Shown one piece after another: positions 4,916 to 64,000 of a stretch of DNA of 64,000 nucleotides (positions within the stretch are counted from its first letter, which is position 1; every line of letters begins with the position of its first letter). The translations under genes were made by a program, and so were the position numbers. Below the pieces are notes generated by a model, which was not told the DNA's origin, did not search any database, and worked only from the letters and a program-made list of their open reading frames with translations. The DNA is from an uncultured Candidatus Binatia bacterium (GTDB lineage: Bacteria; Desulfobacterota; Binatia; UBA9968; JAJDTQ01), in assembly GCA_965242525.1 (NCBI GenBank), contig OZ251459.1:3072001-3136000 (forward strand). Reading direction: 5' to 3'.

Positions 4916-7522
<2,607 letters not shown>

Positions 7523-8779: not shown

Positions 8780-8814
8780 GGCGTCCCGCCTGCCTCAAGC
8801 CGCGCCCGAGGCGG

Positions 8815-10068: not shown

Positions 10069-10103
10069 GGCGTCCCGCCTGCATCAAGCCGTGTCCGGGG
10101 CGG

Positions 10104-11354
10104 TCACCCGTCGCAGACTTCCGGGCGTTGCTCGATATATTCGAGCAGGGCCTCTGCGGCCCATTGGTGGCCGGCGGGGTTCCAGTGGTAGTCGTGGGGC
10201 CACCAGGCGTCCGAGAGCTCGGCGCCCTGCCGGAGGATGTAGTCGGCCTGGCCGACGACGGGAATATCGAGGGCCGCGGCCATTTCGCTCATTCGCTCGA
10301 ATATGCGGGTTCCGGGGGTCCCCAGCGTGTGTGTCGCCAGGATGACCAGCGCGGCGCCGTCCCGGTCGGCGCGCTGCTGGAACTGCTCCAGCGCGAAGCG
10401 GGTGTATTGCAGGGCGTCCTCGTAAAAGGGAGGCAGATCCCTTCGAGAGAAGGCTCGCTCCATGTCGGCCCAACCGGCAGGCCGCCATCCTTCGAACATC
10501 GCAGCATAGCCGGGCTGCCGCATCAGAGCCTCCCGTTTCCGGGAGAACCGGTGTCGTGCGTTGGAAGAAGGAGGAGGAAACAACGCGTTCTTCTTGGCGG
10601 ACAACCAGAGGGCAAACCGTGAATGGGCCATGGCCTTCCTTCCGGCGAGGGCGGCCCCCGATGGTTGAGGCCAGAAACCCTCTGGGAGCTGGTCCTGGGG
10701 GTAGGCCCATGCCAGTTCCAACTCCCCGTCCGGGCGCTTTCTCACCGTGGGCTCCAAACCCCATCCTCGGCTCCATTCTGTCCACTGCAGTGCCCTCAGA
10801 AGCGGCGTGTTGTTGTCGAAATCATTGTCGACGAAGACCAGCACGAGCAGTTTGGGACGGAGCCGTCGGGCATATTCGTCGTAGAACGGCAGTTGCTGGA
10901 CTTGGCCGGTATTCCTCAACCCGAAGGCCGAGGTCGTGACGTCCAGGCGGGGCAACCGGCTGGCGGCGAGTTCTTCGAGGCGAACCTGGAGCTTTTGATC
11001 GATGGGGACCTCCATCGCCTCCACGAAGGAGTCGCCGATGACGGAGACGTGGCAGGTTGCTGCGGCGCGTTCGGGGCTCGGGGGTTCCCGGTCGAGGAAG
11101 CCCAGGCTGTTGGTGCGGGAGACGTTCCAGTAGTCGAGTCCGTTGGTATGGCGTATCTCCGTGTTCGGCGGTCTGAGATAGCCTACGTTCGGGACGAACT
11201 CCAGGGGTCGGCTCGATGCGATGAACGGCACGGTCAGTCGAAGCCGGGCTTCTCCGGCCAACCCCACCAGCGCGGCGCCCGCGACCATGATGAGCGCATT
11301 CCATCCGATGAGGCGCAGCGCGCGGCGGAACCCGGCCATTGACGAAGATACCAC
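10104..11354 (-). CDS. SGNH/GDSL-family hydrolase or acyltransferase, copy 3
   Basis: Same motifs (VIGDSF, VDND, HDYHWNPAGH). Confidence 0.8.
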   Translation of the reverse strand: MVSSSMAGFRRALRLIGWNALIMVAGAALVGLAGEARLRLTVPFIASSRPLEFVPNVGYLRPPNTEIRHTNGLDYWNVSRTNSLGFLDREPPSPERAAATCHVSVIGDSFVEAMEVPIDQKLQVRLEELAASRLPRLDVTTSAFGLRNTGQVQQLPFYDEYARRLRPKLLVLVFVDNDFDNNTPLLRALQWTEWSRGWGLEPTVRKRPDGELELAWAYPQDQLPEGFWPQPSGAALAGRKAMAHSRFALWLSAKKNALFPPPSSNARHRFSRKREALMRQPGYAAMFEGWRPAGWADMERAFSRRDLPPFYEDALQYTRFALEQFQQRADRDGAALVILATHTLGTPGTRIFERMSEMAAALDIPVVGQADYILRQGAELSDAWWPHDYHWNPAGHQWAAEALLEYIEQRPEVCDG

Positions 11355-11389
11355 GGCGTCCCGCCTGCCTCAAGCCGCGCCCGGGGCGG

Positions 11390-12646
11390 TCACCCGTCGC
11401 AGACTTCCGGGCGTTGCTCGATGTATTCGAGCAGGGCCTCTGCGGCCCATTGATGGCCGGCGGGGCTCCAGTGGCCGTCGTGGGGCCAGTGAGCGTCCGT
11501 GAGCCTGGCGCTCTGGCGGAGGATGTAGTCGGCCTGGTCGATGACGGGAATGCCGAGAGTCGCGGCCATTTCGCTCATTCGCTCGAACAGGGGAGTTCCG
11601 GGGTTCTTCAGCGTGTATGTCGCCAGGATGACCAGCGCGGCGCCGTCCCGGTCGGCGCGCTGCCGGAACTGCTCCAGCGCGAAGCGGGTGTATTGCAGGG
11701 CGTCCTCGTAAAAGGGAGGCAGGTCCCTTCGAGAGAAGCCTCGCTCCATGTCGGCCAAACTGGTGGGCCGCCATCCTTCGAACATCGCAGCATAGCCGGG
11801 GTGCTGCCTCAGAACCTCCCGTTTCCGGAAGAACCGGTGTCGTGTGTCACGAGGAGGAACCAACGCCTTCTTCAACGCGTTCTTCTTGGCGGACAACCAG
11901 AGGGCAAACCGTGAATGGGCCATCGCCTCCCTTCCGGCGAGGGCGGTCCCCGATGGTTGAGGCCAGAAACCCTCTGGAATCTGGTCCTCGAGGAAAGCCC
12001 ATGCCAGTTCCAACTCCCCGTCCGGGCGTTTTCTCACCATGGGCTCCAAACCCCATCCCCAGCTCCATTTTGCCCACTGCAGTGCCCTCAGAAGCGGCGT
12101 GTTGTTGCCGAAATCATTGTCGACGAAGACCAGCACGAGCAGTTTGGGACGGAAGCGTCGGGCATATTCGTCGTAGAACGGCAGTTGCTGGACTTGGCCG
12201 GTATTTCCCACCCCGAAGGCCGAAGTCGTGACCTCCGTTCGGGGCAACCGGGCAGCGGCGAGTTCTTCGAGGCGAACATGGAGCTTGCGGTGGATGGGGA
12301 CCTCTCGCGCCTCCACGAAGGAGTCACCGATGACGGCGACGTGGCAGGTTGCTGCGGCGCGTTCGGGGCTCGGGGGTTCCCGGTCGAGGAAGCCCAGGCT
12401 GTTGGTGCGGGAGACGGTCCAGAAGTCGAGTTCGTTGGTATGGCGTATCTCCGTGTTCGGCGGCCTGAGATGGCCTACGTTCGGGACGAACACCAAGGGT
12501 GGACTCGATTTCATGAACGGCACGGTCAGACGAAGCCAGGCTTCTCCGGCCAACCCCACCAGCGCAGCGCCCGCGACCATGATGAGCGCATTCCATCCGA
12601 TGAGGCGCAGCGCACGACGGAACCCGGCCATTGACGAAGATACCAC
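11390..12646 (-). CDS. SGNH/GDSL-family hydrolase or acyltransferase, copy 4
   Basis: Same motifs (VIGDSF, VDND, HDGHWSPAGH). Confidence 0.8.
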   Translation of the reverse strand: MVSSSMAGFRRALRLIGWNALIMVAGAALVGLAGEAWLRLTVPFMKSSPPLVFVPNVGHLRPPNTEIRHTNELDFWTVSRTNSLGFLDREPPSPERAAATCHVAVIGDSFVEAREVPIHRKLHVRLEELAAARLPRTEVTTSAFGVGNTGQVQQLPFYDEYARRFRPKLLVLVFVDNDFGNNTPLLRALQWAKWSWGWGLEPMVRKRPDGELELAWAFLEDQIPEGFWPQPSGTALAGREAMAHSRFALWLSAKKNALKKALVPPRDTRHRFFRKREVLRQHPGYAAMFEGWRPTSLADMERGFSRRDLPPFYEDALQYTRFALEQFRQRADRDGAALVILATYTLKNPGTPLFERMSEMAATLGIPVIDQADYILRQSARLTDAHWPHDGHWSPAGHQWAAEALLEYIEQRPEVCDG

Positions 12647-12681
12647 GGCGTCCCGCCTGCCTCAAGCCGCGCCCGGGGCGG

Positions 12682-14010
12682 TCATCCGTCGCAGACTTCC
12701 GGGCGTTGCTCGATGTATTCGAGCAGGGCCTCTGCGGCCCATTGGTGGCCGGCGGGGCTCCAGTGGCCGTCGTGGGGCCAGTGGGCGTCCGTGAGCTTGG
12801 CGCCCTGGCGGAGGATGTAGTCGGCCTGGTCGATGACGGGAATGCCGAGAGTCGCGGCCATTTCGCTCATTCGCTCGAACAGGGGAGTTCCGGGGGTCTT
12901 CAGCGTGTGTGTCGCCAGGATGACCAGCGCAGCGCCGTCCCGGTCGGCGCGCTGCCGGAACTGCTCCAGCGCGAAGCGGGTGTATTGCAAGGCGTCCTCG
13001 TAAAAGGGAGGCAGGTCCCTTCGAGAGAAGCCTCCCACCACGTCGCCCCAACTGGTAGGCCGCCATCCTTCGAACATCGCAACATAGCCGGCAGCATAGC
13101 CGGGCTGCCGCATCAAAGCCTCCCGTTTCCGGGAGAACCGATGTGGCGCGTTGGAAGGAGGAGGAGGAAACAACGCCTTCTTCTTGGCGGACAACCAGAG
13201 GGCAAACCACGAATGGGCCATCGTCTTCCTTCCGGCGAGGGCGGTCCCCGATGGTTGGGGCCAGAAACCCTCTGGAATCTGGTCCTTGGGGAAAGCCCAT
13301 GCCAGTTCCAACTCCCCGTCCGGGCGCTTTCTCACCATGGGCTCCCAAGGACCTTTTCGGCCCCCTGGCAATAAACCCAACGATCTCAGAAGCGGCGTGT
13401 TGTTGCGGAAATCATTGTCGACGAAGACCAGCACGAGCAGTTTGGGACGGAGCCGCCGGGCATATTGGTCGTAGAACGGCAGTTGCTGGACTTGGCCGGT
13501 ATTTCCCATCCCGAAGGCCGAAGTCGTGACTTCCATGCGGGGCAACCGGGCAGTGGCGAGTTCTTCGAGGCGAACATGGAGCTTGTCCTCGTTGGGGACG
13601 TCCGGCGCCTCCACGAAGGAGTCGCCGATGACGGCGACGTGGCAGGTTGCTGCGGCGCGTTCGGGGCTCGGGGGTTCACGGTCGAGGAAGCCCAGGCTGT
13701 TGGTGCGGGAGACGGTCCAGAAGTCGTGTCCGTTGGTATGGCGTACCTCCGTGTTCGGCGGTCTGAGATAGCCTGCGTTCGGGACGAACTCCAGGGGTTT
13801 GCTCGATTTCAGGAACGGCACGGTCAGGCGAAGCCAGGCTTCTCCGGCCAACCCCACCAGCGCGGCACCCGCGACCAACAGAAGCACGTTCCAGCCGATG
13901 AGGCGCAACGCACGGCGGAACCGGCTACCGGGGGGAGTTGCAAGTGTGCAGCCGCGGTCCGAAAGCGTCAGCGGCGCCGGTTCGTTCAGAGGTCCATCTT
14001 TGCTGACCAT
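12682..14010 (-). CDS. SGNH/GDSL-family hydrolase or acyltransferase, copy 5 (distinct N-terminus; start uncertain)
   Basis: Same motifs. The likely ATG at 14010 (MVSKDGPL...) overlaps the end of the upstream gene. Confidence 0.75.
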   Translation of the reverse strand: MVSKDGPLNEPAPLTLSDRGCTLATPPGSRFRRALRLIGWNVLLLVAGAALVGLAGEAWLRLTVPFLKSSKPLEFVPNAGYLRPPNTEVRHTNGHDFWTVSRTNSLGFLDREPPSPERAAATCHVAVIGDSFVEAPDVPNEDKLHVRLEELATARLPRMEVTTSAFGMGNTGQVQQLPFYDQYARRLRPKLLVLVFVDNDFRNNTPLLRSLGLLPGGRKGPWEPMVRKRPDGELELAWAFPKDQIPEGFWPQPSGTALAGRKTMAHSWFALWLSAKKKALFPPPPSNAPHRFSRKREALMRQPGYAAGYVAMFEGWRPTSWGDVVGGFSRRDLPPFYEDALQYTRFALEQFRQRADRDGAALVILATHTLKTPGTPLFERMSEMAATLGIPVIDQADYILRQGAKLTDAHWPHDGHWSPAGHQWAAEALLEYIEQRPEVCDG

Positions 14011-16064
14011 TGGCGTCGGTATGGGGTTCTGTTCTGTCCCATCCTGATGCGGGAGACAGGATAACCGGGGAGTGGAACGACAGCGACGCACTTCCCTTCG
14101 AATAGCACGGAGTGCGCGACGAGCGGGATGAAGGGATTGTCCGAGCCGTACCGTTCGTATTGTCGGGGCAGGTCCTTCGGGTCTTCCGGAGTCACGTCCA
14201 CGAAGATCCCCTGTCCCGATTCCAGATCCTCCCGGACGCAGGGTTCCCTGACGAAGGTCAGGGTGTCATCACCGAGATAGACATCGAAGTAGGAGCGCGC
14301 CGCCGGGTCTCCGGCGGACACTGCCCTTTGGTAGGCGGCCCGGTACCACTCCAGGAAATCGGCGATACCCGACGAATCATGCAGGAACACCTGTTGGTTC
14401 CGGGGTGTGAGCAGGGCGTCGCTCTCCACGCGGTCGGGGGTGACGATGAAGTCCGCGGCGCGGGCAGCGGCTTCCATGTCGGAGAGGCGTACCAGGACGC
14501 TTCCGGCCAAGTGGAGCTTCCAACGGTTCAGCGGGGACCATTCCGGATTCATGGACTCGATGACCAGGACCGTCTTGCCCCGGGTGGTTTCGCGGATGGC
14601 TCCGAGTTCGGCCATGGCGGTCCGTTGGGTCTCGGCCGCATGGGCGTCGAGGCCCCATCGTTGATCCATCCGGAAGGCGGATGCCGCGAAGGCGAGCAGG
14701 GCCGCGGCGGCAAAGGCGGCTACCGGACGAGCCCCCCATCGCTCGCGGACGTACAGCAGGAGCAGCGAGTAGAACACCAGCGGGACGCCCACGTAGAACA
14801 ATGCCTCGTGGTTGTGGTGTGCGGAATTGTTGCGCATGGGCAGGGCCCAGAAGAACCCGGACAGAGCAAGGACAGCCAGCAGGAAGCGCTGCCGCCCTTC
14901 CAGCAGCGGCCCTGCAAGGCGAGCGAGGGCCGCTGCTGCTCCCACGGCCATGAGCAACGCCAGGATGGATGACGACAACAGCGGCCCGAGAGGCCCCGAG
15001 GGTAAAGGAGGGGGCCCCGGGTCCCAACGGAAAGACTGGAACCACCCTGCCGGACCGCTTGCCTGGTCGGTGAGCAGGAACGGAACGGAGGCCACGCTGA
15101 CGCGAAAGAACTGCTGGCGCAGGAAACGCCGCCACCACTCCACGGGGGCGAAGTCCCCCTCCAGTCCGGTGCGCATGAGCATGGACTGGAACGACGGCAG
15201 TTCGGTCACCGGCGTCTCGCCTCCGAAGGCGGCGTACTCGCTGGCAAAGTTGAAGCTCAGGACGGCCGCGCCGAACAGCAGCGCGGCCAAGCCCAGGGCG
15301 GTGTAGCGGCTGCGCAGCACTGCGGCTGCGACGAAACGCGCACAGGGCCGGAGCGCAGTTCCGTGCTTCCAGGCCCGGAAGGCTTCCCGGGCCAAGCCCA
15401 GGAGGATGAAGGGAAGCAGGAAGGCGTACACGTGCCAGCCCAGCAGCAGCGCAACGAAGGTCTTGGCCAGCAACTGCCGGAACCGTCCCTCCTGCACGAA
15501 CACCACCATGCCGTGGAAGGCCAGCATGACCGCGAACAGGTCCACGCTGGCCTCGGTGGTGACCGCGTCGCCGTAGAACAGCATGTAGTAGGAAGAGAAG
15601 GCCATGAGGGTGGCGGCCAGTGCGATCCAGGGGCGGGAGGTGATGCGCGCGAGGGAGTGGAAAGCGAGGACCGCGGCGGCGCTGAACAGGAGGAGCATGA
15701 GGATTCGTGCGGTGAGGATCTTTGCGGAGAGGTCGTTTCCGAAGGGGAGGATGGCGAGTTTGAGGAGTGCGTAACCGCCGACGGGAAAGCGGCTGTACAT
15801 GTCGTAGGTCGGGGAGCCGCTTGATCCCTGGTGCCGCGCCTGGAACAACCGGAAACCGTGGTCGGGGGACAGGTTCTCGGCGATGGCCAAGCTTTTCAGG
15901 GACGTGTGAGTATGGAAGCCGGGACGGTACAAGTATCCATTGTCCACGTTGCACAGGAACAACGTGGACAACGCGAGCAGCAGCAACAGCAGGGGAAGCG
16001 TTGGGGCCGGAAATCTGGGGAGGGGGGGGGGGGGGGGCTTGGCATGTTCCAAATTCGATCTCAT
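13986..16064 (-). CDS. Multi-pass membrane protein, GT-C (ArnT/PMT-like) glycosyltransferase-like, with a soluble C-terminal domain
   Basis: About 10-12 hydrophobic helices, a periplasmic loop after TM1 (YSRFPVGG), and a C-terminal soluble domain with two Cys (FDVYLGDDTLTFVREPC...CVAVVPLPGYP). The topology is typical of GT-C enzymes. Confidence 0.6.
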   Translation of the reverse strand: MRSNLEHAKPPPPPLPRFPAPTLPLLLLLLALSTLFLCNVDNGYLYRPGFHTHTSLKSLAIAENLSPDHGFRLFQARHQGSSGSPTYDMYSRFPVGGYALLKLAILPFGNDLSAKILTARILMLLLFSAAAVLAFHSLARITSRPWIALAATLMAFSSYYMLFYGDAVTTEASVDLFAVMLAFHGMVVFVQEGRFRQLLAKTFVALLLGWHVYAFLLPFILLGLAREAFRAWKHGTALRPCARFVAAAVLRSRYTALGLAALLFGAAVLSFNFASEYAAFGGETPVTELPSFQSMLMRTGLEGDFAPVEWWRRFLRQQFFRVSVASVPFLLTDQASGPAGWFQSFRWDPGPPPLPSGPLGPLLSSSILALLMAVGAAAALARLAGPLLEGRQRFLLAVLALSGFFWALPMRNNSAHHNHEALFYVGVPLVFYSLLLLYVRERWGARPVAAFAAAALLAFAASAFRMDQRWGLDAHAAETQRTAMAELGAIRETTRGKTVLVIESMNPEWSPLNRWKLHLAGSVLVRLSDMEAAARAADFIVTPDRVESDALLTPRNQQVFLHDSSGIADFLEWYRAAYQRAVSAGDPAARSYFDVYLGDDTLTFVREPCVREDLESGQGIFVDVTPEDPKDLPRQYERYGSDNPFIPLVAHSVLFEGKCVAVVPLPGYPVSRIRMGQNRTPYRRQWSAKMDL
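16022..16037 (-). repeat. C16 homopolymer (G16 on + strand) near the start of the GT-like gene
   Basis: Sixteen consecutive G on +, encoding PPPPP(L) in frame. Confidence 0.9.
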
Positions 16065-54264: not shown

Positions 54265-54463
54265 GGAACCTCTGAACAATCGGGACAGGGGGCATGAGCG
54301 CGTCCTTCGACTTCGCTTCGCTACGCTCAGGACGAACGGATATAAGGGTCAGGGTGAAGGAATCCATCCCGGATGTCTCGATTGTTCAGATGTTCCCATA
54401 AGGAACTCCGAACAATTACCCCCGTTCGTCCTGAGCGTAGCGTAGCGAAGTCGAAGGACGCGC
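54265..54463. mobile_element. MITE-like element (copy E, ~54265-54396) plus an adjacent half copy with an inverted REP unit
   Basis: GGAACCTCTGAACAATCGGGACA ... TGTCTCGATTGTTCAGATGTTCC, then GGAACTCCGAACAA and an inverted REP at 54422-54463. Confidence 0.7.
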
Positions 54464-56386
54464 TTCGGACGGCCGGTCATTCACCGGGCTGCCTTCACGC
54501 GGACCTCGGCGCGGCGCGAGACCGGCCCCGCGCCCGCGAGCGCCCCTCGGCCCGGGCCATCCATCGAGCAGCCGCTCCAGCAGCAGCAACAGGAAAGCCG
54601 CCAGCGCTCCGTAGCGCCAGAGCCTCCGGTAACCTTGCCCTTCCTCGACGTCGGATGCCGCAGCCTTCGCCCCTTCGAGCGCCAGGGGCCGGGTATGCAG
54701 CAGGTCCGCTTCCTCGCGCCCCTCGAAGTTCACGCCCACCAGCCGCCTGCGGCTCCCTTGCCCGATTGCGTAGATTCCCTGGAACAGCACCGGCGCGGCG
54801 GCGGTCGAGGCGCCGGCGGGCAGGGAGCGGTTTTTGCCATCCGGAACGGCGTCCTCGAGGTTGCGCGAGGCTCCGGCGGGCGGGCTGCTGCGCTTTTCCG
54901 GCGCGTGCAGCGGCCCCGCGGCCAAGCCCAGGACGTCGCCGGTGGAGGCGTTCATCCCGGTGACTCCCTCCCGCAGCCAGCCCAGGAGGTTCAACGTCAG
55001 GATGGACATGGGCAGGTTCCGGCGCCCCATGAACGGGAGCGGGTCGAAGCCGAGCACCGCATAGCGAAACCCGCCGCGCTCGAAGGCCGCGGCCAGTGTC
55101 CCCGCGGGACTCTCGATGACCGGCGCGCCGCCCCCCGGTTCCAGGGGCCGCCCGTACTGCGGTCGCAGGAGCGCCAAGTTGACGTACCGGGTCCAGGCGT
55201 GGGGTTCCTTCCAACCGGACACGGACGGGGCCGCCACCGGCTCTCGAAGGGACGCCAGGGGGTTGCCCTCCGGCGGCAGGATGAAGAGGGCGTGGGCCGC
55301 GGGCAGGGCCGCGGGCGAAGAGAGATGGAATACCTCGACGGACCCGGGCGCGCCGGGGCCGCGTCCGTAGGCGTCCGGCTCGACCACCTCCAGGTCCAGC
55401 CCGGGGACCTGCCGCAGGGTCGCCAGCGCATCGGGGCGCGACGACACCCCCAGAACCCGAAGCCGGCCGGTCCCAGGCGGAACCGCGAACCGGCGGTCGT
55501 CCAGGGCCAGGGCGTCGCCGCCCCGGTCCATGTCGAGCCGGGCTTCGTAATACCGCGCCTCCCGCACCTCCTCGAACACCACCGCGGCCTTCCCGCCCGC
55601 GGGTGCTCGCACTTGCTTCCGGGCGAGCGGACGGGAGCCGCCCGTCAACACCACGGCGACGCTGCGCGGACGCGCGCCGTAGTTGGTCACCTCGACCCGG
55701 GCCGAGAGGACGCCGGACCCCAGGGAGCGCCGGTACAGGTCGAGGGACGTGACCCCGAGGTTGTCCGCGGGTCGGCCCACGGAAACCGCGTGGACCACGG
55801 GGTCGCTTCCCCGTATGGGCCGGTCCGTGACGAAGTACACGCGCCGGTAACCCTTGGCGGCTGCGAGTCGCCGGAGTCTCGGGACGTCGTCCCGTCCCCC
55901 GTCCCCCAGGTCATAAGGGACCATCCCTTCCAGCCGCTCCCGCGCTTGGTCCGCGGAGAGGTCCGACCCGACTGCGCGGCCCCAGGGGACCGCGGCGTAG
56001 AGGTCCACCCGGGTTCCCGCGGGCAGCCCCGCCAGGATCTTTCGGGCTTCCGCTTGGGCGAGGGCGAAGCGGCTTCGCCCCTGCTCGACGGCCTGCATGC
56101 TCGCCGAGTTGTCCAGCACCATGCCCACGGGGCCGCTCGACTGAACGGGAACCACGGGGTCGGCCGACGAAGCGGCCAGCAACGCGAGCATGCACGCCTG
56201 GAGCAGGAACAGGAGGGGCGCCCTCAGCCTGCGCCGGGAAACCCGCTCCGGAGCGTCCGCGCAGGCGCGCAGGACCGACAGGCTCGAGAACATATGGCGT
56301 CTCGGTCTGCGCCCCACGAGGTACGGGACCGCAAGCAGCGGCACGAGGCCCAAAGCGTACAGGGCCGCGGGGTTCAGGAACTCCAT
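54416..56386 (-). CDS. BatA-like N-terminal plus vWA-domain protein
   Basis: MEFLNPAAL...FSSL BatA-type N-terminus, LDNSASM MIDAS and a C-terminal LW..L TM segment. Confidence 0.85.
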   Translation of the reverse strand: MEFLNPAALYALGLVPLLAVPYLVGRRPRRHMFSSLSVLRACADAPERVSRRRLRAPLLFLLQACMLALLAASSADPVVPVQSSGPVGMVLDNSASMQAVEQGRSRFALAQAEARKILAGLPAGTRVDLYAAVPWGRAVGSDLSADQARERLEGMVPYDLGDGGRDDVPRLRRLAAAKGYRRVYFVTDRPIRGSDPVVHAVSVGRPADNLGVTSLDLYRRSLGSGVLSARVEVTNYGARPRSVAVVLTGGSRPLARKQVRAPAGGKAAVVFEEVREARYYEARLDMDRGGDALALDDRRFAVPPGTGRLRVLGVSSRPDALATLRQVPGLDLEVVEPDAYGRGPGAPGSVEVFHLSSPAALPAAHALFILPPEGNPLASLREPVAAPSVSGWKEPHAWTRYVNLALLRPQYGRPLEPGGGAPVIESPAGTLAAAFERGGFRYAVLGFDPLPFMGRRNLPMSILTLNLLGWLREGVTGMNASTGDVLGLAAGPLHAPEKRSSPPAGASRNLEDAVPDGKNRSLPAGASTAAAPVLFQGIYAIGQGSRRRLVGVNFEGREEADLLHTRPLALEGAKAAASDVEEGQGYRRLWRYGALAAFLLLLLERLLDGWPGPRGARGRGAGLAPRRGPREGSPVNDRPSEARPSTSLRYAQDERG

Positions 56387-56452
56387 GACTGCTCGAAGAC
56401 TACATCGCCCCGGAACCGGGGACGATGGTGGGCCTGGTTCAGGAACTCCATG

Positions 56453-57361
56453 CTACTCGAAGACGCCCATGGCCGTCAGGACTCCGATGATGTCGTCGGT
56501 CGTGTTCCGTTCGGCCACGTAGAGCGCCGCGTCGATGCCCCGGCCGCGGCAAGCGTCCGCCAGCTCCCTGATGCGTTGGTCCAACGCTTCCCGATACCGG
56601 CGGCGCGCGCCCTCGTTCCATTGGAGGGGCATCTCCTCCCCGGTCTCGCTGTCCTGCACCACGAGCGCGCCTTCGGCAAAGGGCGGGTCCATCTCCGCGG
56701 CGCCCAGGACCTGGAGCGCGGCCACGTCGAACCCGGCCGCCCGGAGCATCCCGAAGCCCCGTTGGCAGTCCTCCGGGTCCATCAGGAAGTCGGAGACGAC
56801 CACCGCCTTGCCGGGACGGTCGATGCTCCGAAGATGGCGTCCGATGGCCGCGGGCAGGTTCAACGGGCCCTCGGGTGCGAACCCGTTGACGAAGGCGAGC
56901 GCGTCCATGATGCTGCGGCGGCCGCGGAACAGGGGCGACGCGAGCGCACGGGCGGCGTCCTGCAGGAAGTGGAAGCGGACGCCGTCGCCGTTGGCCAGGA
57001 CCGCGTAGGCCAGGGCCAGGGCCACGTGGCGCGCCGGGGTGAACTTCTCCGCCTGCGAGGGGAACCGCATGGAGCCGCTGGCGTCCACGAAGAGGTGTAC
57101 GGAGAGGTCCGCCTCCTCGTGGAACACCTTGACGTAGAGCCGGTCGGTGCGCGCCAGCAGGCCCCAGTCGAGATACCGGAGGTCGTCCCCCGGCGCGTAC
57201 TTCCGGTAATCGGCAAACTCCAGGCCCGCGCCCCGGCGCGCCCCGGTATGCCGCCCCGGCCGATGACCCGGCATCCGCCTGCGCGCCGCCCGCAGCCTCA
57301 TGCCTTCGAGACGGGCGAGCAGTTCGGGAGTGAAAGGGGCCGGCAGCATCTCCGGTTGCAC
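56453..57361 (-). CDS. DUF58 domain protein
   Basis: EFADYRKYAPGDDLRYLDW, VDASGSM and VVSDF. Confidence 0.93.
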   Translation of the reverse strand: MQPEMLPAPFTPELLARLEGMRLRAARRRMPGHRPGRHTGARRGAGLEFADYRKYAPGDDLRYLDWGLLARTDRLYVKVFHEEADLSVHLFVDASGSMRFPSQAEKFTPARHVALALAYAVLANGDGVRFHFLQDAARALASPLFRGRRSIMDALAFVNGFAPEGPLNLPAAIGRHLRSIDRPGKAVVVSDFLMDPEDCQRGFGMLRAAGFDVAALQVLGAAEMDPPFAEGALVVQDSETGEEMPLQWNEGARRRYREALDQRIRELADACRGRGIDAALYVAERNTTDDIIGVLTAMGVFE

Positions 57362-57422
57362 AGGGTATCACGGGACAGGCCCCGCGGAAGCGGTGACCGG
57401 CTCGTATCCCTTCATTTCCAGT

Positions 57423-58406
<984 letters not shown>

Positions 58407-58409
58407 GCG

Positions 58410-59672
58410 TCACTCGATCAGGTCCCTGTATTCCAACGGCAGCCGCTGTATCTCCGCCGCCAGCCCGGGAGGCCGCCGGGGCGGCAGCGGCGCGTTGGCG
58501 AACGGGACCGCCGCGTCCCCGCCCGAACCCGGCGCAACGCCCCGGGGGGCGCCTACGGCCGGCGCTCTCGGCAGCATGACCGTGACGAAACGCGCTCCTT
58601 CCGGCCCGTCCTCGCCGCCCCTGCCGGGCGGATGGAACCGGTCCGGCTGCCTTCCCTGCGCGCCGCCCCGGCCTGCCGAGACGCTGCCGCCGCCCCCTGG
58701 GCCGCCCGCTCCCTTCGCGGTCGGCTCCCGTGCCCGCGAAGGCGGCTCCGTCCCGGCCCCCCGGCCCGGGCCGCGCACGCCGGAAACCCGCGGACCCGGC
58801 GAACCTCCCGTGCCGCGGACTCCGTGTCCCCGTTCGCCGCCCTTTCCGGGCGTGTGAGCCGCGGCGCCGGGGCCGCCTGCCTGCCCGGACGCTACGGCCG
58901 CGGCGCTTGAGCCGCCTGCTTGCCCAGACGCCACGGCCGCGGCGCCCCGTACACCCGCGGGAACCTGCCCTTGCGCCCCTTGGCCTTCACCGCCGCCCCC
59001 GCGCACCAGACCGCTCGCCTGCCCGTCAACCGTACCCTCGCCGAACCCGCCTTCCACTCTACGCCACAGGCCAAGCGCGCCGGCCTTCACGCTCCAGGCG
59101 AGACCCTGCAACCGGAACTGTGCCGAACCCTCCTCCGCGGCGGCGGTGGAGTCGGGCGTGGACCGCACCGGACCTCCCAGCGACAGGTGGACCAGCACCG
59201 CCAATGCGCCGCAGGCCAACAACGAACCCATGACGCCGCGCCGCGCCCGGTAGGGGAAGTCCCTGCCCGGCTCGACGCCGCGGCTCAGAGCCGAAACCTG
59301 TTCCCGCAACCGGGTGACGAAAGCGGGATGCGCCCCCGCCCGGTCCAGGGTCGTCCAGGTGAGGAAACGGTCTTCGGCCCCCATGCGCTCGTCGAGCAGG
59401 CGGGCCGCCTCATGGGAAGACGGCCGCGCGAGACCGGGGTGGAGCAACGCCGCCAGGGCTGCGGCGCCGACCCCGGCCAGGACGAACACCACCGGCGCAG
59501 GCCCGGCAAGCTCCCGGGCAACGAGCGCGGCGCACACGTAGGCGACCACGCCCACGGGCGGAAGCACCGCCAGGAGACGGTCCCATACCCGGTGACGGCG
59601 CAGACGCCGACGCAGCCGTTGGACCATCCGTTCCGGTGACGACGCCGTGTCCCGTGGAGGGAGCCTGCCCAT
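58410..59672 (-). CDS. Membrane protein with a Gly/Ala-rich low-complexity tail (first gene of the MoxR cluster)
   Basis: Two TM segments, AARLLDER....DRF motif, a 13-aa tandem duplication ([11 protein letters not shown]) and C-terminal LPLEYRDL. Confidence 0.7.
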
Positions 59673-59925
59673 GTGGGTCACTATAACAGCAGGCGTGCAG
59701 CGTCAGGAAGCATCTCAGATCCACCACCAACGATGAGTGGCTGGTGTAGGCGAGAGTTGGCGACACAAGCGGCTGAAGGCAGCCCGTCTGTCCCCAGCAG
59801 GCTACCCAATCCTGCCTCACCACACCCTGCAACACACCCGCTTTACCCGGATGGACTCCGCCCGCCCTGTCCCAAACTTTGTTGACGAACCCATGGGATC
59901 CTGATAGTTGCTCTCCGTCAACGGT

Positions 59926-60170
59926 CACCGTTGTCCGGTCAACGGACGCATAAGGTTGAAAATCTCCATATACGACAAGGAGTTACACGGAGAAAGGGGT
60001 GGTGTCGATTTGAACGCGGATTGCCGTTCCGGGTATGTTTCGAGGAGACCCTTCTACAGGTCCTGTCCGTCTCCGCTTTCGAGAAAATCCAACTGAATCA
60101 ATTGGTTACAGAAACAACACCCCTTCAAAACTCCCGATTCCGTCGTATTGCCACCCGCTATGAGAAACTG
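59926..60170 (+). mobile_element. Fused IS remnants (IS4-like end and C-terminal fragment; IS5-like C-terminal fragment)
   Basis: CACCGTTGTCCGGTCAAC looks like an IS terminus. TLLQVLSVSAFEKIQLNQL resembles IS4-family transposase C-termini and FRRIATRYEK is a typical IS5-family (IS427-group) motif. No DDE core is present. Confidence 0.65.
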
Positions 60171-60258
60171 TATCATAGACAAGTTGCCTTGTGTTCCGAT
60201 TTCGCTCACGGCCACGGTTCGGGTTGCGTGAATTGCAAAAGGGGCATCGGAGGCGGCA

Positions 60259-62202
60259 ATGGCACGTCCATATGCGGGAGAGATGGCAAGGCTGGCCGAA
60301 ACGTTCGATTGGGCAGCAACGGCCGACCTTAAGCCTCTATGTCAAGCTCTCCGCACCAGCGGACTTTCACCGCTTCGCGCCATTGGCTCCGGCGGTTCCC
60401 TAACCGGCGCCCATGCGCTGGCCAGTCTACACCAACGCTACACCGGCCAGATCGCCGCGGTCGCCACGCCCTTGGAAGCGGTCGGTGTTCCGCTCACCTC
60501 CACCGTCGCTACTTGGCTGCTAAGCGCCGGTGGCGGCAACGCCGACATCCTGACAGCGGCAAAGGCGTTGATCCTTCGCGAGCCGCGTCAGATCGGTGTC
60601 CTTTGCGGTCGAGAGACTAGCCCACTGGCCGAACTGTGCCGTCAGCACCCGTTTGTCGATCTGCTGCTCTACCCCCCGCTCGCTGGCAAGGATGGCTTCC
60701 TCGCTACCAACTCGCTCCTCGGTTTTGTTGCCCTTCTTACGCGAGCCTACGCGGCTGAGTTCGATTCAAATGCCGATTGGCAAGACGCGGTCGCCTGCCT
60801 GAATCCACTGCTCTCGGATACCGCTGCTTCTTTGGAGACGTGGAAGGCGGCCACGATGCCGCTCTGGACACGGTCCACCACGCTCGTTCTTCATGGCCCC
60901 TCCACGCGGATCGGGGCGATCGATCTGGAGTCGAAGTTCACGGAAGCCGCGATCGGACAAGTTCAGATCACCGACTACCGCAATTTCGCCCACGGCCGGC
61001 ATCACTGGCTCGCCAAGCGAAGCGAGACGAGCGCCGTGCTCGCCTTCGTCACCGACGCGGACCGCGCGCTCGCCGAGCTAACCCTCGACCTGATCCCAGC
61101 CGACGTTCCACAAGCGCGTGTCGTGTTCAATGGCGGACCGAGCGCAGTAGCACTTGCTTCACTGCTCGCGGCACTGAGGATCACAGGATGGGCCGGGCAC
61201 ATCAATGGTATCGACCCTGGACGCCCTGGTGTCCCCGAGTTTGGGCGCAGGCTCTACAACCTACGAATCCCACGCCCCCGACGCGCTGCAGGGCGGCCGC
61301 GCCTCACACCGCGAGAGGCGGCCGCAATCGCCCGGAAAGCGGAGGTCGCCCCGGACAGCCTCGCCACCTTGAGCGAACTCGGCCGCTGGCGCGATATGCT
61401 CGCGGCTTTTCTCAACCGTTTGCGCGATGCTTGTTTTGCCGGCGTCGTTCTCGACTATGATGGCACGCTGGTCGACACCCGACATCGGTTCGAGCCAGCA
61501 AATCAGAAAGTGGTCTCCGAACTTGCCCGCCTCGCCGGAGCGGGTGCTTACATCGGGATTGCAACCGGTCGAGGCAAATCGGTTCGATGCTACCTTCAGA
61601 AACACCTCCCTCGCGCGCTCTGGCATCTCGTTCTTGTTGGCTACTACAACGGCGCGGAGGTCGCACTGCTCGAAGACGACGGCGCTCCGGATGGATCCCA
61701 GAATGTCGGAGCCGCCCTTCGCCCACTCGCTGATGCCTTGCGCCGTCAGCCGGATCTCTCCCAATGCACGCGCCAGGAAGATCGCCCCTTCCAGATCACT
61801 CTTGAGGCCACCCGTGTCATACCCGTGAGGCGGATTTGGGATCTCACCCGCCAAGTCACCCTTACGACCGGTGTCCATGACGTTACTGTCACGCACTCTA
61901 GCCATTCGGTTGACGTCATGGCGGCCGGGGTGTCCAAGTTGAACGTCGTTCGGCGGCTACGTGAGAAGGTCGGCGACGAGCCTATCCTCACAATCGGTGA
62001 CTGCGGACGTTGGCCAGGAAACGACTATGAGCTGCTCAGCGAACCCTTTGCACTCGGGGTCGACGAGATCAGCGCCGATCCTGTGACCTGCTGGCATCTC
62101 GGCAAGCCAGGCCAACGTGGTCCGACGGTCACTCTTGAGTATATCTCTGCACTGGAAGCGCAAGGTGGTCGGTTGAGATTCTTGGCGGGGTCGTTGCAAT
62201 GA
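60259..62202 (+). CDS. Fusion of tandem SIS (sugar-phosphate isomerase-like) domains and a Cof-type HAD phosphatase
   Basis: SIS motifs IGSGGS, LSAGG.NAD, ESKFTE and NFAHGRH. HAD motifs I DYDGTL, II ATGR, III SK and IV GD....GND. GGAGG RBS. Confidence 0.85.
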   Translation: MARPYAGEMARLAETFDWAATADLKPLCQALRTSGLSPLRAIGSGGSLTGAHALASLHQRYTGQIAAVATPLEAVGVPLTSTVATWLLSAGGGNADILTAAKALILREPRQIGVLCGRETSPLAELCRQHPFVDLLLYPPLAGKDGFLATNSLLGFVALLTRAYAAEFDSNADWQDAVACLNPLLSDTAASLETWKAATMPLWTRSTTLVLHGPSTRIGAIDLESKFTEAAIGQVQITDYRNFAHGRHHWLAKRSETSAVLAFVTDADRALAELTLDLIPADVPQARVVFNGGPSAVALASLLAALRITGWAGHINGIDPGRPGVPEFGRRLYNLRIPRPRRAAGRPRLTPREAAAIARKAEVAPDSLATLSELGRWRDMLAAFLNRLRDACFAGVVLDYDGTLVDTRHRFEPANQKVVSELARLAGAGAYIGIATGRGKSVRCYLQKHLPRALWHLVLVGYYNGAEVALLEDDGAPDGSQNVGAALRPLADALRRQPDLSQCTRQEDRPFQITLEATRVIPVRRIWDLTRQVTLTTGVHDVTVTHSSHSVDVMAAGVSKLNVVRRLREKVGDEPILTIGDCGRWPGNDYELLSEPFALGVDEISADPVTCWHLGKPGQRGPTVTLEYISALEAQGGRLRFLAGSLQ

Positions 62203-63347
62203 ACCAGGACCTCGGGCTTAAAGTACTCAGTCAGATCATGAAGTGGACCGACGACCTCGCACGCCAAGAGTTCCAGTGGCTGAGACTGATGGCGCGTCTC
62301 AAATACGATGGCTATCGCGATTTTCAAGCGGGTATGCGTTTCATCGAAAGCTTAGTGACCTGGCTTCAGCAGTTCGAACAGCCGCAGGAAAGGGAGACAG
62401 CCTATGCCTTCGTGCGCCACTCCCTTGTTTACATCGGCCCCAGTGAGATGCAGCGACTCGTCGAGCAGTTCTACCCACGCACCGTCCGAGATCGCATCGT
62501 TCACATGGTGGCAACCGAGTGCCAGATTCAGCCTTATCGAGTGCTCGCAGACCCGGACGCCCAAGCGGCGGAGAAACGCTTGCGCCGCCAGACCTTGTTC
62601 ATGGGTTTAAGTGAAGGAGCGCACGTCGACATTCTCCGTCGTATGAACTCGGGCTTGCTTAGCAACGAACAATTCGTCCAGGGCACACAGGTAGATACCG
62701 ACAAGTGGAAAGATCTGCTTGATCATCTTCGCAAGGATCTCGACGTTCAAAACGGACGGTTCCGTCTCGTCTATCTGATTGACGACTTCGCTGGCACCGG
62801 AACCTCGTTTCTCCGTTGCGATAAAAATAAGACGGAGTGGAAAGGTAAGCTCCTCCGCTTCAAAGACTCAGTTGAGCACGCTAATGGTGTGCTCGGTGGT
62901 GACAAGCTGTTTGAGGACGATTGGGTGCTTTGCATCCATCACTACGTGGCATCACAGGCTGCCAGGAACGCCATCGAGAAGCGTCTTGAAGAGGCGAAGG
63001 CGAGCGGGGCCTTTCAGGAAGATTGGGCTCAGGCTATGCGAGCTTCATTCGGACTGGTCCTTCCTCCCGACCTGCCGATCAATGCGGTTCCTGGACATCC
63101 TGACGACTTCGTCAAGCTGACTCAAATCTACTACGACCCCAAAATTCGCACGAAACACACCGACATTGGCGGCGTGCCTCACCTTGGTCTCGGCTATGGC
63201 GGCTGCGCACTTCCTCTCGTACTCGAACACAATACCCCGAACAACGCGGTTGCCCTGCTTTGGGCCGAGACCGACGGCGGAGATCGAGATGGCACTCTCG
63301 CGCCAGCCATGCGCCCGCTTTTCCGTCGCCGCCACCGGCATGTCTGA
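62199..63347 (+). CDS. Phosphoribosyltransferase-like protein (PRTase-CE-like)
   Basis: PRPP-binding-loop motif YLIDDFAGTGTS; C-terminal LGYG.C.LPLV..HNTPNN...LLW...PLF.R; ATGA overlap with the upstream gene. Confidence 0.75.
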   Translation: MNQDLGLKVLSQIMKWTDDLARQEFQWLRLMARLKYDGYRDFQAGMRFIESLVTWLQQFEQPQERETAYAFVRHSLVYIGPSEMQRLVEQFYPRTVRDRIVHMVATECQIQPYRVLADPDAQAAEKRLRRQTLFMGLSEGAHVDILRRMNSGLLSNEQFVQGTQVDTDKWKDLLDHLRKDLDVQNGRFRLVYLIDDFAGTGTSFLRCDKNKTEWKGKLLRFKDSVEHANGVLGGDKLFEDDWVLCIHHYVASQAARNAIEKRLEEAKASGAFQEDWAQAMRASFGLVLPPDLPINAVPGHPDDFVKLTQIYYDPKIRTKHTDIGGVPHLGLGYGGCALPLVLEHNTPNNAVALLWAETDGGDRDGTLAPAMRPLFRRRHRHV

Positions 63348-63359
63348 GAGACATACTAC

Positions 63360-64000
63360 ATGGCAAACCCCTTCGAAAAGCGAGCAACCGAATATCTCCG
63401 AGATGATGAGGCATTCCTCGCCGTAGTCACTCCGGAGCCGCTTGTCACCTTTTTCCAGAAGCCGGCGAAACAAGGCTGCCTCTACGACCGTTTGGTGATG
63501 GTCATCGGTACTCCAGGTAGCGGAAAGACAACCCTCGCGAGGCTCTTCCAGTTTACGAGCTTGAATACTCTGCTACTCAATCGCGACAGCACCAACTACA
63601 AGCCGCTGCTTCATACGCTGACAACCTGCGGAGCGATTGACAACGAGCGCCCAAAACTCGTAGGCGAGCGCATTCCACTCGAGGCCGAATACCGGGATTT
63701 TTGGGAATTCCCTTACCCGGAAGAGCTCAAAACAAAGCTGATGATTGCACTGCTGCAGGCCCGTACCGTACTAGCTTGGCTCCGAAACATTCAGACCTCC
63801 GGTAGGCAGCTTGACCAAATCGAGATCGTGCCGCGTACCGACGCCAACGCCGCACTCAAGGCCATCGGCGGTGAAGCGGGACAGGATCTGCATCATCGCG
63901 CCCGTGAAGTCGAGCTTGCTATCTACAAGATCTCGGCCGCACTCGTGCCGCCAGTCATTCAAGACATTCCCATAGAGGCAGTTTCTGCCTACCGACCGTT
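63360..64000 (+). CDS. P-loop ATPase (ORC/CDC6-like STAND type), 3' end outside window; absent from the ORF track
   Basis: Manual translation gives MANPFEKRATEYLRDDEAFL...VMVIGTPGSGKTTLARLF (Walker A); no stop was seen to 64000. Confidence 0.85.
   Translation, partial: MANPFEKRATEYLRDDEAFLAVVTPEPLVTFFQKPAKQGCLYDRLVMVIGTPGSGKTTLARLFQFTSLNTLLLNRDSTNYKPLLHTLTTCGAIDNERPKLVGERIPLEAEYRDFWEFPYPEELKTKLMIALLQARTVLAWLRNIQTSGRQLDQIEIVPRTDANAALKAIGGEAGQDLHHRAREVELAIYKISAALVPPVIQDIPIEAVSAYRP

Follow-up and report, generated by a model that had tools for sequence, protein, structure and literature searches.

A mobile five-gene cassette joins a PRTase-CE candidate effector, an ORC/Cdc6-like ATPase and a CARF6 protein to sugar-phosphate enzymes

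What could a sugar-isomerase fold fused to a phosphatase be doing beside a phosphoribosyltransferase-like protein and an ATPase? Such a trio of genes closes the 64,000-nucleotide stretch of DNA analysed here (the window), which comes from an uncultured Candidatus Binatia bacterium. An earlier note, made from the sequence alone, had taken the trio for an anti-phage-type system. The cassette context, the families of the PRTase and the ATPase and the placement outside sugar operons favour that idea, but the gene number, the identity of the sensor and the STAND label given to the ATPase do not stand. On balance, we consider it probable that the locus is a five-gene defence-type cassette, in which dedicated sugar-phosphate enzymes deal with what an ATPase/CARF-controlled, PRPP-consuming effector makes.

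The three genes of the window lie on the forward strand. Gene 1 (60259-62202, 647 aa) encodes a double-SIS domain of the GlmS/FrlB/NagB-II-like kind fused to a HAD-IIB phosphatase (SIS-HAD), gene 2 (62199-63347, 382 aa) encodes PRTase-CE, a retron-type phosphoribosyltransferase-like candidate effector, and gene 3 (63360-64000) runs off the window after the N-terminal 213 aa of an ORC/Cdc6-like AAA+ ATPase. Their tight packing, remarked on in the earlier note, is borne out by the ORFs and by direct reading: genes 1 and 2 overlap by an ATGA at 62199-62202, and a gap of 12 nt (63348-63359) separates genes 2 and 3. These three genes are real, but the unit does not end with them. Retrieved from the genome as locus L002 (window position = L002 position + 57999), gene 3 extends to 636 aa (L002 5361-7271) and is followed, beyond the window, by gene 4, encoding a CARF6-type protein (L002 7273-8388), whose ATG lies 1 nt past the gene 3 stop, and by gene 5, encoding a PfkB kinase (L002 8385-9473), whose start again overlaps its neighbour through an ATGA. 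The five genes form one translationally coupled operon.

For gene 1, neither Pfam nor NCBIfam gives an SIS match, and its profile matches (3knz, 3fkj, 3c3j) are weak. In its AlphaFold model (pLDDT 87.3), Foldseek aligns residues 1 to ~360 with the double-SIS domains of isomerases (GlmS, NagB-II, Lmo0035) at E ~1e-12, with TMt 0.69-0.74 against 2aml, 7kqa, 1moq and 2zj3; as predicted by this model, the fold is that of a double-SIS protein. GSGG 43-46, E229 and H245 are invariant in 18 homologues, and the E-x15-H spacing equals that of E. coli GlmS and FrlB; in GlmS, these E and H residues are catalytic. By hhalign, the similarity to FrlB (E 0.045) and to GlmS (E 0.55) is not significant. The C-terminal part scores 34.1 bits against Hydrolase_3 (PF08282, cut-off 20.9). 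In the same 18 homologues, the DYDGT residues D399, D401, G402 and T403 are invariant, as are K560, D581 and D589, and T436 is kept in at least 90%; profile and four HAD motifs together predict a HAD-IIB (Cof-type) phosphatase. The SIS-SIS-HAD fusion proposed earlier is thus confirmed by the Foldseek matches and the Hydrolase_3 score. Some RefSeq records label this protein 'sucrose-6-phosphate hydrolase'.

Gene 2 matches PF24390 (PRTase-CE) with 59.8 bits (cut-off 27) over residues 54-377, and also the PADLOC PRTase_III-A models. The DD..GTG loop of the earlier note is genuine: D195, D196, G201 and T202 of the PRPP-binding loop are invariant in 18 sequences, and so is G332-x14-P347-N348-N349. 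The motif of the retron-associated PRTase effectors of cluster 67_3, Gx14PNNxP, lacks its last P here (PNNAVA) and has it shifted by one position in a second gene order of the cassette (PNNAIP). In VIA-align, type I PRTases fill the top 12 rows (Z 7.3-8.5 over 114-161 aligned residues), and Foldseek finds no match at E <= 1e-3; we assign the type I PRTase fold, presumed in the earlier note, with moderate confidence. The protein has 1947 homologues, the best 120 of which all carry PF24390.

The full-length gene 3 protein scores 42.5 bits against PF24389 (ORC-CDC6-like, cut-off 27). Invariant in 20 homologues are the N-terminal NPF..RA.E, Walker A G50, P52, G53, G55, K56 and T57, and Walker B D238 and D239, features of a predicted ORC/Cdc6-like AAA+ ATPase with intact Walker A and B. 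The NPF-starting Walker A ATPase seen at the window's edge therefore holds up, its start and Walker A residues being invariant. So do both family names (PF24390, PF24389) in its proposed pairing of PRTase-CE with an ORC/CDC6-like STAND ATPase, but not the word STAND, to which only sub-threshold matches correspond (nSTAND3, 15.7 vs 27.2 bits).

Gene 4 matches the PADLOC model PDLC01916 at E 4.7e-128 (residues 28-377 of a 390-aa ORF) and PDLC01910 at E 3.6e-91. By this one PADLOC model family it would belong to the CARF6 group; it has no Pfam and no PDB sequence match, and Atlas yielded unnamed clusters only. Lying outside the window and invisible to the earlier note, it is the likely ligand sensor of the system. 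Gene 5 matches PF00294 (PfkB) with 44.9 bits (cut-off 25.8). It keeps the motifs GGxCGN and DxxGxGD (the PfkB consensus being DTxGxGD), with G34, G35, D247, G250, G252 and D253 showing at most one exception in 19 sequences. Its best NCBIfam match, ribose-1-phosphate kinase, reaches 28.9 bits vs a cut-off of 330, and its similarity to FrlD is weak (E 0.04). The kinase completes the sugar-phosphate enzyme set. Catalytic motifs are retained in every cassette enzyme across sets of 18-20 homologues that are 28-86% identical.

In the Binatia genome, the cassette is a low-GC insertion of ~7.8 kb. As the earlier note had sensed, the composition of the genes (GC 0.54-0.66) falls below that of the backbone upstream (0.67-0.80). 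The MoxR orthologue and MltG stand 9.3 kb apart here vs 1.4-2.0 kb in 6 same-order genomes, relatives in which the island is missing from the equivalent site. The left edge of the island is a spacer of 577 nt (59682-60258, no strand assigned) with intermediate GC (0.57-0.63) and no intact gene. It had been described as IS debris, a description that is not confirmed: the spacer, including the ORF at 59931-60332, has no Pfam match, nor any tblastn match in plasmids, and only a 126-nt piece (59925-60050) recurs in the genome, 83% identical to a segment adjoining another island that carries an IS630-like transposase ORF. We take an in-frame spacer peptide, RRIATRYEKL, to resemble the C-termini of IS5-family transposases. 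A sigma-70-like site is present at 60148-60176, but sites of this kind are no more numerous than expected by chance.

Does the cassette hold together elsewhere? Of 31 genome loci representing at least eight phyla, 26 have all five genes; among the remaining five, four are truncated at contig ends and one has decayed. In metagenome loci anchored on SIS-HAD, the PRTase gene comes next wherever more than 300 nt lie downstream (75/75), and where the downstream sequence reaches 5.3 kb or more, the five genes are complete in 43 of 44 loci. The trio of PRTase-CE, ORC-CDC6-like ATPase and CARF6 is present in every complete locus, and cassette proteins are strongly conserved, being 66-81% identical across phyla. 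The spread is patchy: among 123 genomes of the order, 3 have this PRTase type, the sole same-genus copy sitting at a different site, and among the phylum's 401 genomes PF24390 passes its cut-off in 9. In addition, the cassette is found on 20 plasmids, 9 of them conjugative, and is Tn-type cargo in two; it adjoins TniA-like, TniB and TniQ genes on a Shinella plasmid and TniA-like and TniB genes on an Agrobacterium plasmid. The cassette is horizontally mobile, here an inserted island, and its genes are co-inherited.

Most copies are chromosomal islands beside phage-defence genes. SIR2 is adjacent at one locus and Shedu lies near the cassette at another; one locus is flanked by McrBC, Mrr and an integrase, another by an integrase and AbiEii; type I and III R-M plus HEC-01 occur among 87 flank ORFs scanned as a set out of 200. 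These are raw counts taken without a random-locus control and do not show enrichment. The defence neighbourhood expected earlier is real insofar as McrBC, Mrr, AbiEii, R-M and SIR2 adjoin the cassette. There is no conserved flank, each Pfam family occurring in at most 3 of the 87 ORFs, and at locus L019 sugar-acid kinase and aldolase genes adjoin the cassette. Homologues lie outside conserved sugar-catabolic operons, as an anti-phage reading had supposed: they are always within the cassette, in mobile DNA and beside defence genes.

How might the cassette work? Which protein senses what, which acceptor is used, which way the sugar-phosphate steps run and that the cassette protects at all are as we infer them. 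The AAA+ ATPase and the stand-alone CARF6 nucleotide-ligand sensor would hold the PRTase off until an invader-derived cue appears. We put no name to this cue because none of the known CARF-ligand synthases is encoded in the operon and no Cas10 is found in the genome, which is 98.96% complete (TIGR02578, 24.8 bits vs a cut-off of 170; TIGR02577, no match). Once active, the PRTase would transfer phosphoribosyl from PRPP to a nitrogen acceptor and use up PRPP, a loss that would starve nucleotide synthesis and halt the invader or the cell. SIS::HAD and PfkB would work on the phosphoribosyl/ribulosamine-phosphate product as kinase, Amadori-type deglycase/isomerase and phosphatase, and these helpers may reset or detoxify what the PRTase makes.

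Parts of this scheme have relatives. Genes 2, 3 and 4 match all three members of a catalogue set, PRTase-CE (PF24390), ORC-CDC6-like (PF24389) and CARF6 (PDLC01910/01916), which are database families that have neither a system name nor a tested function; PADLOC and NCBIfam give no system name for genes 2-4. The families are said to go back to Makarova in 2020 and to Burroughs and Aravind in 2020. Comparative papers that are the source of the families, and that possibly describe the cassette, lie outside the literature covered, in which we found no experimental work on it. A homologous effector is that of type III-A retrons: according to the accessible part of the report on Retron-Eco11, activation is accompanied by ~50% PRPP loss and abortive infection, and the PRPP loop and Gx14PNN are common to that effector and gene 2 (PMC12746101). 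The control differs, however. In the retrons it lies with msDNA, whereas AAA+ ATPase and CARF control is proposed here; the retrons have an adjacent RT and ncRNA, but the island has no RT ORF, its five genes all belonging to other families; the C-terminal winged helix of Eco11 is missing from gene 2, and the sugar-phosphate enzymes are extra. One PRTase-CE homologue is itself paired with an RT, retron-type (L163). ShosTA, likened here by the description in the accessible part of its report, also uses a PRTase-type toxin that disturbs purine metabolism in phage defence, but consists of two genes only, for the toxin and for an antitoxin that binds DNA, unlike the five-gene cassette (PMC11961720).

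A second reading, possible but clearly less likely, makes PRTase-CE a base-modifying toxin that phosphoribosylates nucleobases of DNA, nucleotides or RNA with PRPP, while accessory erasers protect self. The eraser would be a NADAR N-glycosidase in some versions and, here, PfkB with the double-SIS deglycase::HAD, acting after Amadori rearrangement; in sister versions, DNA methylases would mark self; CARF and ATPase would gate the attack, and PRPP loss would be a by-product. Just as tentatively, PRTase-CE could be a new class of nucleic-acid or nucleotide base phosphoribosyltransferase, the PRPP-driven counterpart of DarT, which uses NAD+. What speaks for this reading is the company that PRTase-CE keeps. 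In the second gene order, 11 loci have NADAR adjoining the cassette (PF08719, E 2e-25; TIGR02464 above cut-off); NADAR also opens the operon on a Burkholderia plasmid and in L164, and in 3 metagenome loci it stands 3' of gene 5. At L160, the gene for PRTase-CE is embedded in a type I R-M operon and adjoins a NADAR::HsdS fusion, and L162 encodes a single 1570-aa protein made of PRTase-CE, NADAR, DUF1156 and an N6-adenine methylase. The recurrent NADAR/DNA-methylase fusions and the FrlB/GlmS-like SIS motif, with its retained E-x15-H pair, suggest N-phosphoribosyl adducts that are erased. The FrlB deglycase, which acts on fructoselysine 6-phosphate, is partnered by the PfkB-family kinase FrlD (fructoselysine 6-kinase) in the annotated E. 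coli frl operon, a pairing of PfkB kinase and double-SIS protein that the cassette repeats; the SIS domain of gene 1, however, is fused to HAD and belongs to a conflict cassette that has no transporter or regulator. As far as the accessible parts of the sources go, NADARs reverse guanine ADP-ribosylation in DNA and serve as antitoxins to ribosyl-transferring toxins in DarT1-NADAR and YarT-YbiA, where the donor is NAD+ instead of the PRPP that would serve here (PMC11125620; PMC11543638), and the Eco11 effector bears a DNA-binding winged helix (PMC12746101). Yet the adduct is hypothetical; the source genome has no match to NADAR (PF08719); the sequence similarity of genes 1 and 5 to FrlB, GlmS and FrlD is not significant or weak, as given above; and Eco11 metabolomics, in the part of the report accessible, recorded a change in PRPP only (PMC12746101).

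We find it rather unlikely that PfkB, SIS, HAD and PRTase form a regulated pathway to an antiviral analogue or a CARF second messenger, with ATPase and CARF as regulators. The operon does combine four enzymes predicted to act on small molecules, their active sites intact, with a CARF protein that has no known synthase nearby, and kinase, isomerase and phosphatase resemble routes to sugar-nucleotide precursors, such as the GmhA/HldE/GmhB logic. However, a core of PRTase and ATPase, with or without CARF, exists without SIS-HAD and PfkB (L161), so the sugar enzymes look accessory, and PRTase-CE is a toxic effector in retrons; both points count against such a pathway. Somewhat less likely again is an addiction or exclusion module that stabilises its plasmid or transposon carrier or excludes rival elements, and is not anti-phage. 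The 20 plasmids and the adjoining Tni genes would fit it, as would the viral data: none of 50,697 phage records carries or matches the cassette, a count uninformative on the target, and 2.9 million viral contigs hold 1 locus. But most copies are chromosomal and beside phage-defence genes, and this reading is compatible with the main one. It is very improbable that the operon serves the ordinary catabolism or salvage of an amino-sugar, an Amadori compound or ribose: the PfkB kinase, FrlB/NagB-II-like SIS and sugar-phosphate phosphatase are a trio typical of such routes, and the RefSeq 'hydrolase' label agrees, but the unit has no transporter or sugar regulator, its enzymes are always joined to PRTase-CE, ATPase and CARF, and its flanks are unconserved, in mobile and defence settings.

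If the defence-type cassette is protective, it would be a CARF-gated immune system without a known signal synthase, whose effector hits the PRPP node and which has a repair/reset module of sugar-phosphate enzymes built in. We know of no described parallel to such a module in defence systems. The cassette is widespread, its PRTase being found across many phyla, on plasmids and beside transposition genes. The association of PRTase-CE with NADAR and DNA methylases also offers a concrete lead to the action of retron type III-A effectors.

The three genes at the window end open a conserved, mobile five-gene operon that encodes an intact effector of the PRTase type together with an AAA+ ATPase and a CARF-family protein; three further domains of its products are sugar-phosphate enzymes. 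Gene 1 (double-SIS::HAD-IIB; 60259-62202, + strand, 647 aa), gene 2 (PRTase-CE; 62199-63347, +, 382 aa) and gene 3 (ORC/Cdc6-like ATPase; +, from 63360 through the window end) are co-directional open reading frames, and both junctions described in the earlier note, an ATGA overlap and a gap of 12 nt, were verified directly in the sequence. In the fetched DNA that continues past the window (L002; window coordinates are obtained by adding 57999), gene 3 is complete at 5361-7271 and encodes 636 aa. The earlier note was right about these three genes but not about the size of the unit: the downstream DNA adds gene 4 (CARF6-type; L002 7273-8388, 371 aa), which starts 1 nt after the gene 3 stop, and gene 5 (PfkB kinase; L002 8385-9473, 362 aa), whose start overlaps the gene 4 stop by ATGA. 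The reported drop in GC content is also real (0.54-0.66 over genes 1-3 against 0.67-0.80 upstream), and the low-GC stretch runs from about L002 1500 to 9500. The "IS debris" placed before gene 1 is not confirmed, as we found there no Pfam family and no tblastn match in plasmids.

The five genes travel together. When a single genome was scanned for each species, 31 loci emerged, spread over Gamma- and Alphaproteobacteria, Acidobacteriota, Myxococcota, Planctomycetota, Chlamydiae, Chloroflexota and Entotheonella, and tblastn with the five proteins detected all of them in 26 (counting L012, L028 and L030, which are interrupted or fragmentary). Among the incomplete loci, L011, L014, L021 and L033 are truncated by contig ends and L006 has no gene 5 and an incomplete gene 4. 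A metagenome scan was anchored on SIS-HAD and limited to the 80 best among at least 568 relatives. Where more than 300 nt of downstream sequence was available (75 loci), the PRTase gene always lies next to SIS-HAD; where at least 5.3 kb was available (44 loci), 43 have all five genes, and the exception, L123, shows genes 1-3 only, despite 8 kb of downstream DNA. At E <= 1e-3 the PRTase itself finds 1947 homologues; PF24390 is present in every one of the top 120, whose identity is 72-100%.

Two gene orders occur, 1-2-3-4-5 as in the window and 2-3-4-1-5, the latter mostly alphaproteobacterial and 29-46% identical. Loci of the second order are followed by a convergent NADAR gene in 11 cases and by an HTH-like gene in 8. 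Among the best 80 metagenome loci, three carry a NADAR gene as well and one is arranged 1-5-2-3-4. A PIN_12 gene (PF16289, E 1e-23) stands directly upstream of the cassette in three second-order loci (L015 8641-9774, L014 and L016). Decayed or interrupted copies were seen at L012, L006, L028, L030 and L123; at L012, some 3.4 kb (10651-14062) interrupt the PRTase gene after about residue 217.

The SIS-HAD fusion, the PRTase-like protein and the ORC/CDC6-like P-loop ATPase that the earlier note had read are all borne out by profile or structure searches. The C-terminal part of gene 1 is a HAD-IIB phosphatase, with Hydrolase_3 above its Pfam cut-off (the Cof and HAD-IIB subfamily matches fall below theirs), and D399, D401, G402, T403, K560, D581 and D589 are invariant among 18 homologues of 28-80% identity. 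Residues 1-380 have no Pfam match. In the AlphaFold model (pLDDT 87.3), this N-terminal part resembles double-SIS isomerase domains (Foldseek E about 1e-12, TMt about 0.7), the matches being the GlmS isomerase domain, NagB-II, Lmo0035 and putative phosphosugar isomerases; PDB sequences gave weak matches to the gene 1 profile (3knz, 3fkj, 3c3j). E229 and H245 are invariant and keep the E-x15-H spacing of E. coli GlmS and FrlB. Their GlmS counterparts, with Met1 counted, are E489 and H505, which we take to be its catalytic Glu and His. Profile-to-sequence comparison of gene 1 with E. coli FrlB and GlmS (hhalign) gave no significant similarity.

Gene 3 matches the ORC-CDC6-like family PF24389 at 42.5 bits against a cut-off of 27, and its Walker A and B motifs are invariant among homologues. 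Gene 4 matches the PADLOC CARF6 models (E 4.7e-128 and 3.6e-91), has no Pfam family and finds only unnamed clusters in the ESM Atlas. PDB sequence searches with the ATPase and with the CARF profile returned chance-level rows only. Gene 5 is a divergent PfkB kinase (PF00294, 44.9 bits), whose GG and DxxGxGD motifs are conserved with at most one exception; its nearest named NCBIfam relatives are far under their cut-offs, its PDB rows are weak ketohexokinase matches, and its similarity to E. coli FrlD is weak (E 0.04). No known signal synthase for the CARF protein was found in the operon, and no Cas10 above cut-off in the source genome.

Gene 2 is a PRTase-CE protein (PF24390, 59.8 bits against a cut-off of 27). 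Its model (pLDDT 76.7) had no Foldseek match in the PDB at E <= 1e-3, and a PDB sequence search with the PRTase profile gave no matches; in VIA-align, type I PRTases fill all of the 12 top rows (Z 7.3-8.5). A predicted complex of ATPase residues 1-610 with the PRTase scored 0.29 (mark 0.32). Gene 2 is also matched by the PADLOC PRTase_III-A models, which belong to type III-A retrons (passages in PMC13712802). D195, D196, G201, T202 and G332-x14-P347-N348-N349 are invariant, the last being the Gx14PNNxP motif given for retron PRTases in parts of PMC12746101, without the final P. According to the same passages, the homologous effector of Retron-Eco11 requires its catalytic site, is triggered by phage helicases, cuts PRPP by about half and confers abortive infection (PMC12746101).

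The cassette is mobile and is an insertion at this site. Twenty plasmids carry the PRTase and nine of them are conjugative; TniA-like and TniB genes lie upstream of the cassette on a Shinella plasmid (together with TniQ) and on an Agrobacterium plasmid, both with recombinases nearby, and on a Rathayibacter plasmid a SIR2 gene adjoins it. Phage records gave no match to the cassette, and the CARF protein occurs in only one of 2.9 million viral contigs. The distance from the MoxR orthologue (66-74% identity) to MltG is 1.4-2.0 kb in six genomes of the same order and 9.3 kb here, so that about 7.8 kb was inserted between a 423-aa gene (58410-59681) and MltG. Within the order, this PRTase type is limited to 3 of 123 genomes, and the sole same-genus copy is at another site. 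The island ends show no convincing flanking direct or inverted repeats and no tRNA, and promoter-like and terminator-like sites do not outnumber those in shuffled sequence.

Several further observations concern the surroundings. A MoxR/DUF58/Bat-type operon (54416-58406, - strand) lies upstream of the island; the six genomes with MoxR beside MltG belong to other families of the order, and twelve same-genus genomes yielded only 53-54% MoxR paralogues. In the same genome, where the window is G000:C1:3072001-3136000, a second island (L035, G000:C1:1485625-1488750) contains the N-terminus of a DUF1156 methylase, a protein of the AbiJ_NTD4/DUF7014 type and an ORF for an IS630-like transposase, and a 126-nt segment, 83% identical, is common to it and to window positions 59925-60050, just upstream of gene 1. 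One and the same peptide ending, STSLRYAQDERG, recurs in unrelated - strand ORFs (window 54416-54460 and L002 11592-12020), which points to a short repeat dispersed through intergenic DNA of the source genome.

Homologues lying in sugar-catabolic operons, which the earlier note had set against defence, are not the rule: no sugar-catabolic enzyme is among the 25 Pfam families listed for 87 flank ORFs (at least 140 aa, no more than 6 kb away from the cassette, at the 12 genome loci of the first order; the other 113 of the 200 flank ORFs at the 31 loci belong to second-order loci). One locus, L019, does speak against defence, with a sugar-acid kinase and an aldolase upstream of the cassette. No Pfam family recurs in more than three of the 87 ORFs. 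PADLOC models matching them at E <= 1e-10 include components of type I and type III R-M systems as well as HEC-01 and Hma, which we take as context and not as enrichment because the counts have no random-locus control.

In a sample of the phylum, PF24390 exceeds its cut-off in 9 of 401 genomes, and seven regions were fetched. L166 holds the five-gene cassette with integrase and AbiEii adjoining; L164 has NADAR-1-2-3-4 beside McrBC, Mrr and an integrase; L161 pairs PRTase-CE with an ORC-CDC6-like ATPase, L163 pairs it with a reverse transcriptase, and L165 is a short contig. At L160 (G450:C12:120000-137000, ORFs 5999-14215), two genes are inserted in a type I R-M operon, whose order is HsdM, PRTase-CE (PF24390, E 5e-57), a NADAR::HsdS fusion and HsdR. 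At L162 (G149:C4:22700-39600), ORF 7929-12641 encodes 1570 aa with PRTase-CE, NADAR, DUF1156 and a D12-class N6-adenine DNA methylase.

How could such a machinery operate? We envision that the ATPase and the CARF protein would gate the PRTase, that the PRTase would consume PRPP, and that the PfkB kinase and the SIS and HAD parts may process the phosphoribosyl product. A bolder and rather unlikely alternative is that the effector decorates bases with N-phosphoribosyl adducts, to be removed again by the accessory enzymes. Such a scheme would fit the FrlB/GlmS-type motif of gene 1 and the recurrent linkage of PRTase-CE with NADAR and with DNA methylases or specificity subunits, the methylase link being drawn from L160 and L162 only; NADAR is described, in passages of PMC11125620, as an N-glycosidase with an antitoxin role that takes ADP-ribose off guanine in DNA. 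The three core families (PRTase-CE, ORC-CDC6-like and CARF6) are already catalogued in Pfam and PADLOC. We found no named system or experiment for the cassette in PADLOC, NCBIfam or the searched literature, and no mention of the PRTase or ORC in Kaur 2020; two comparative-genomics papers (Makarova 2020, Burroughs and Aravind 2020) may describe it. The cassette is a real, widespread system, and its function is putative.
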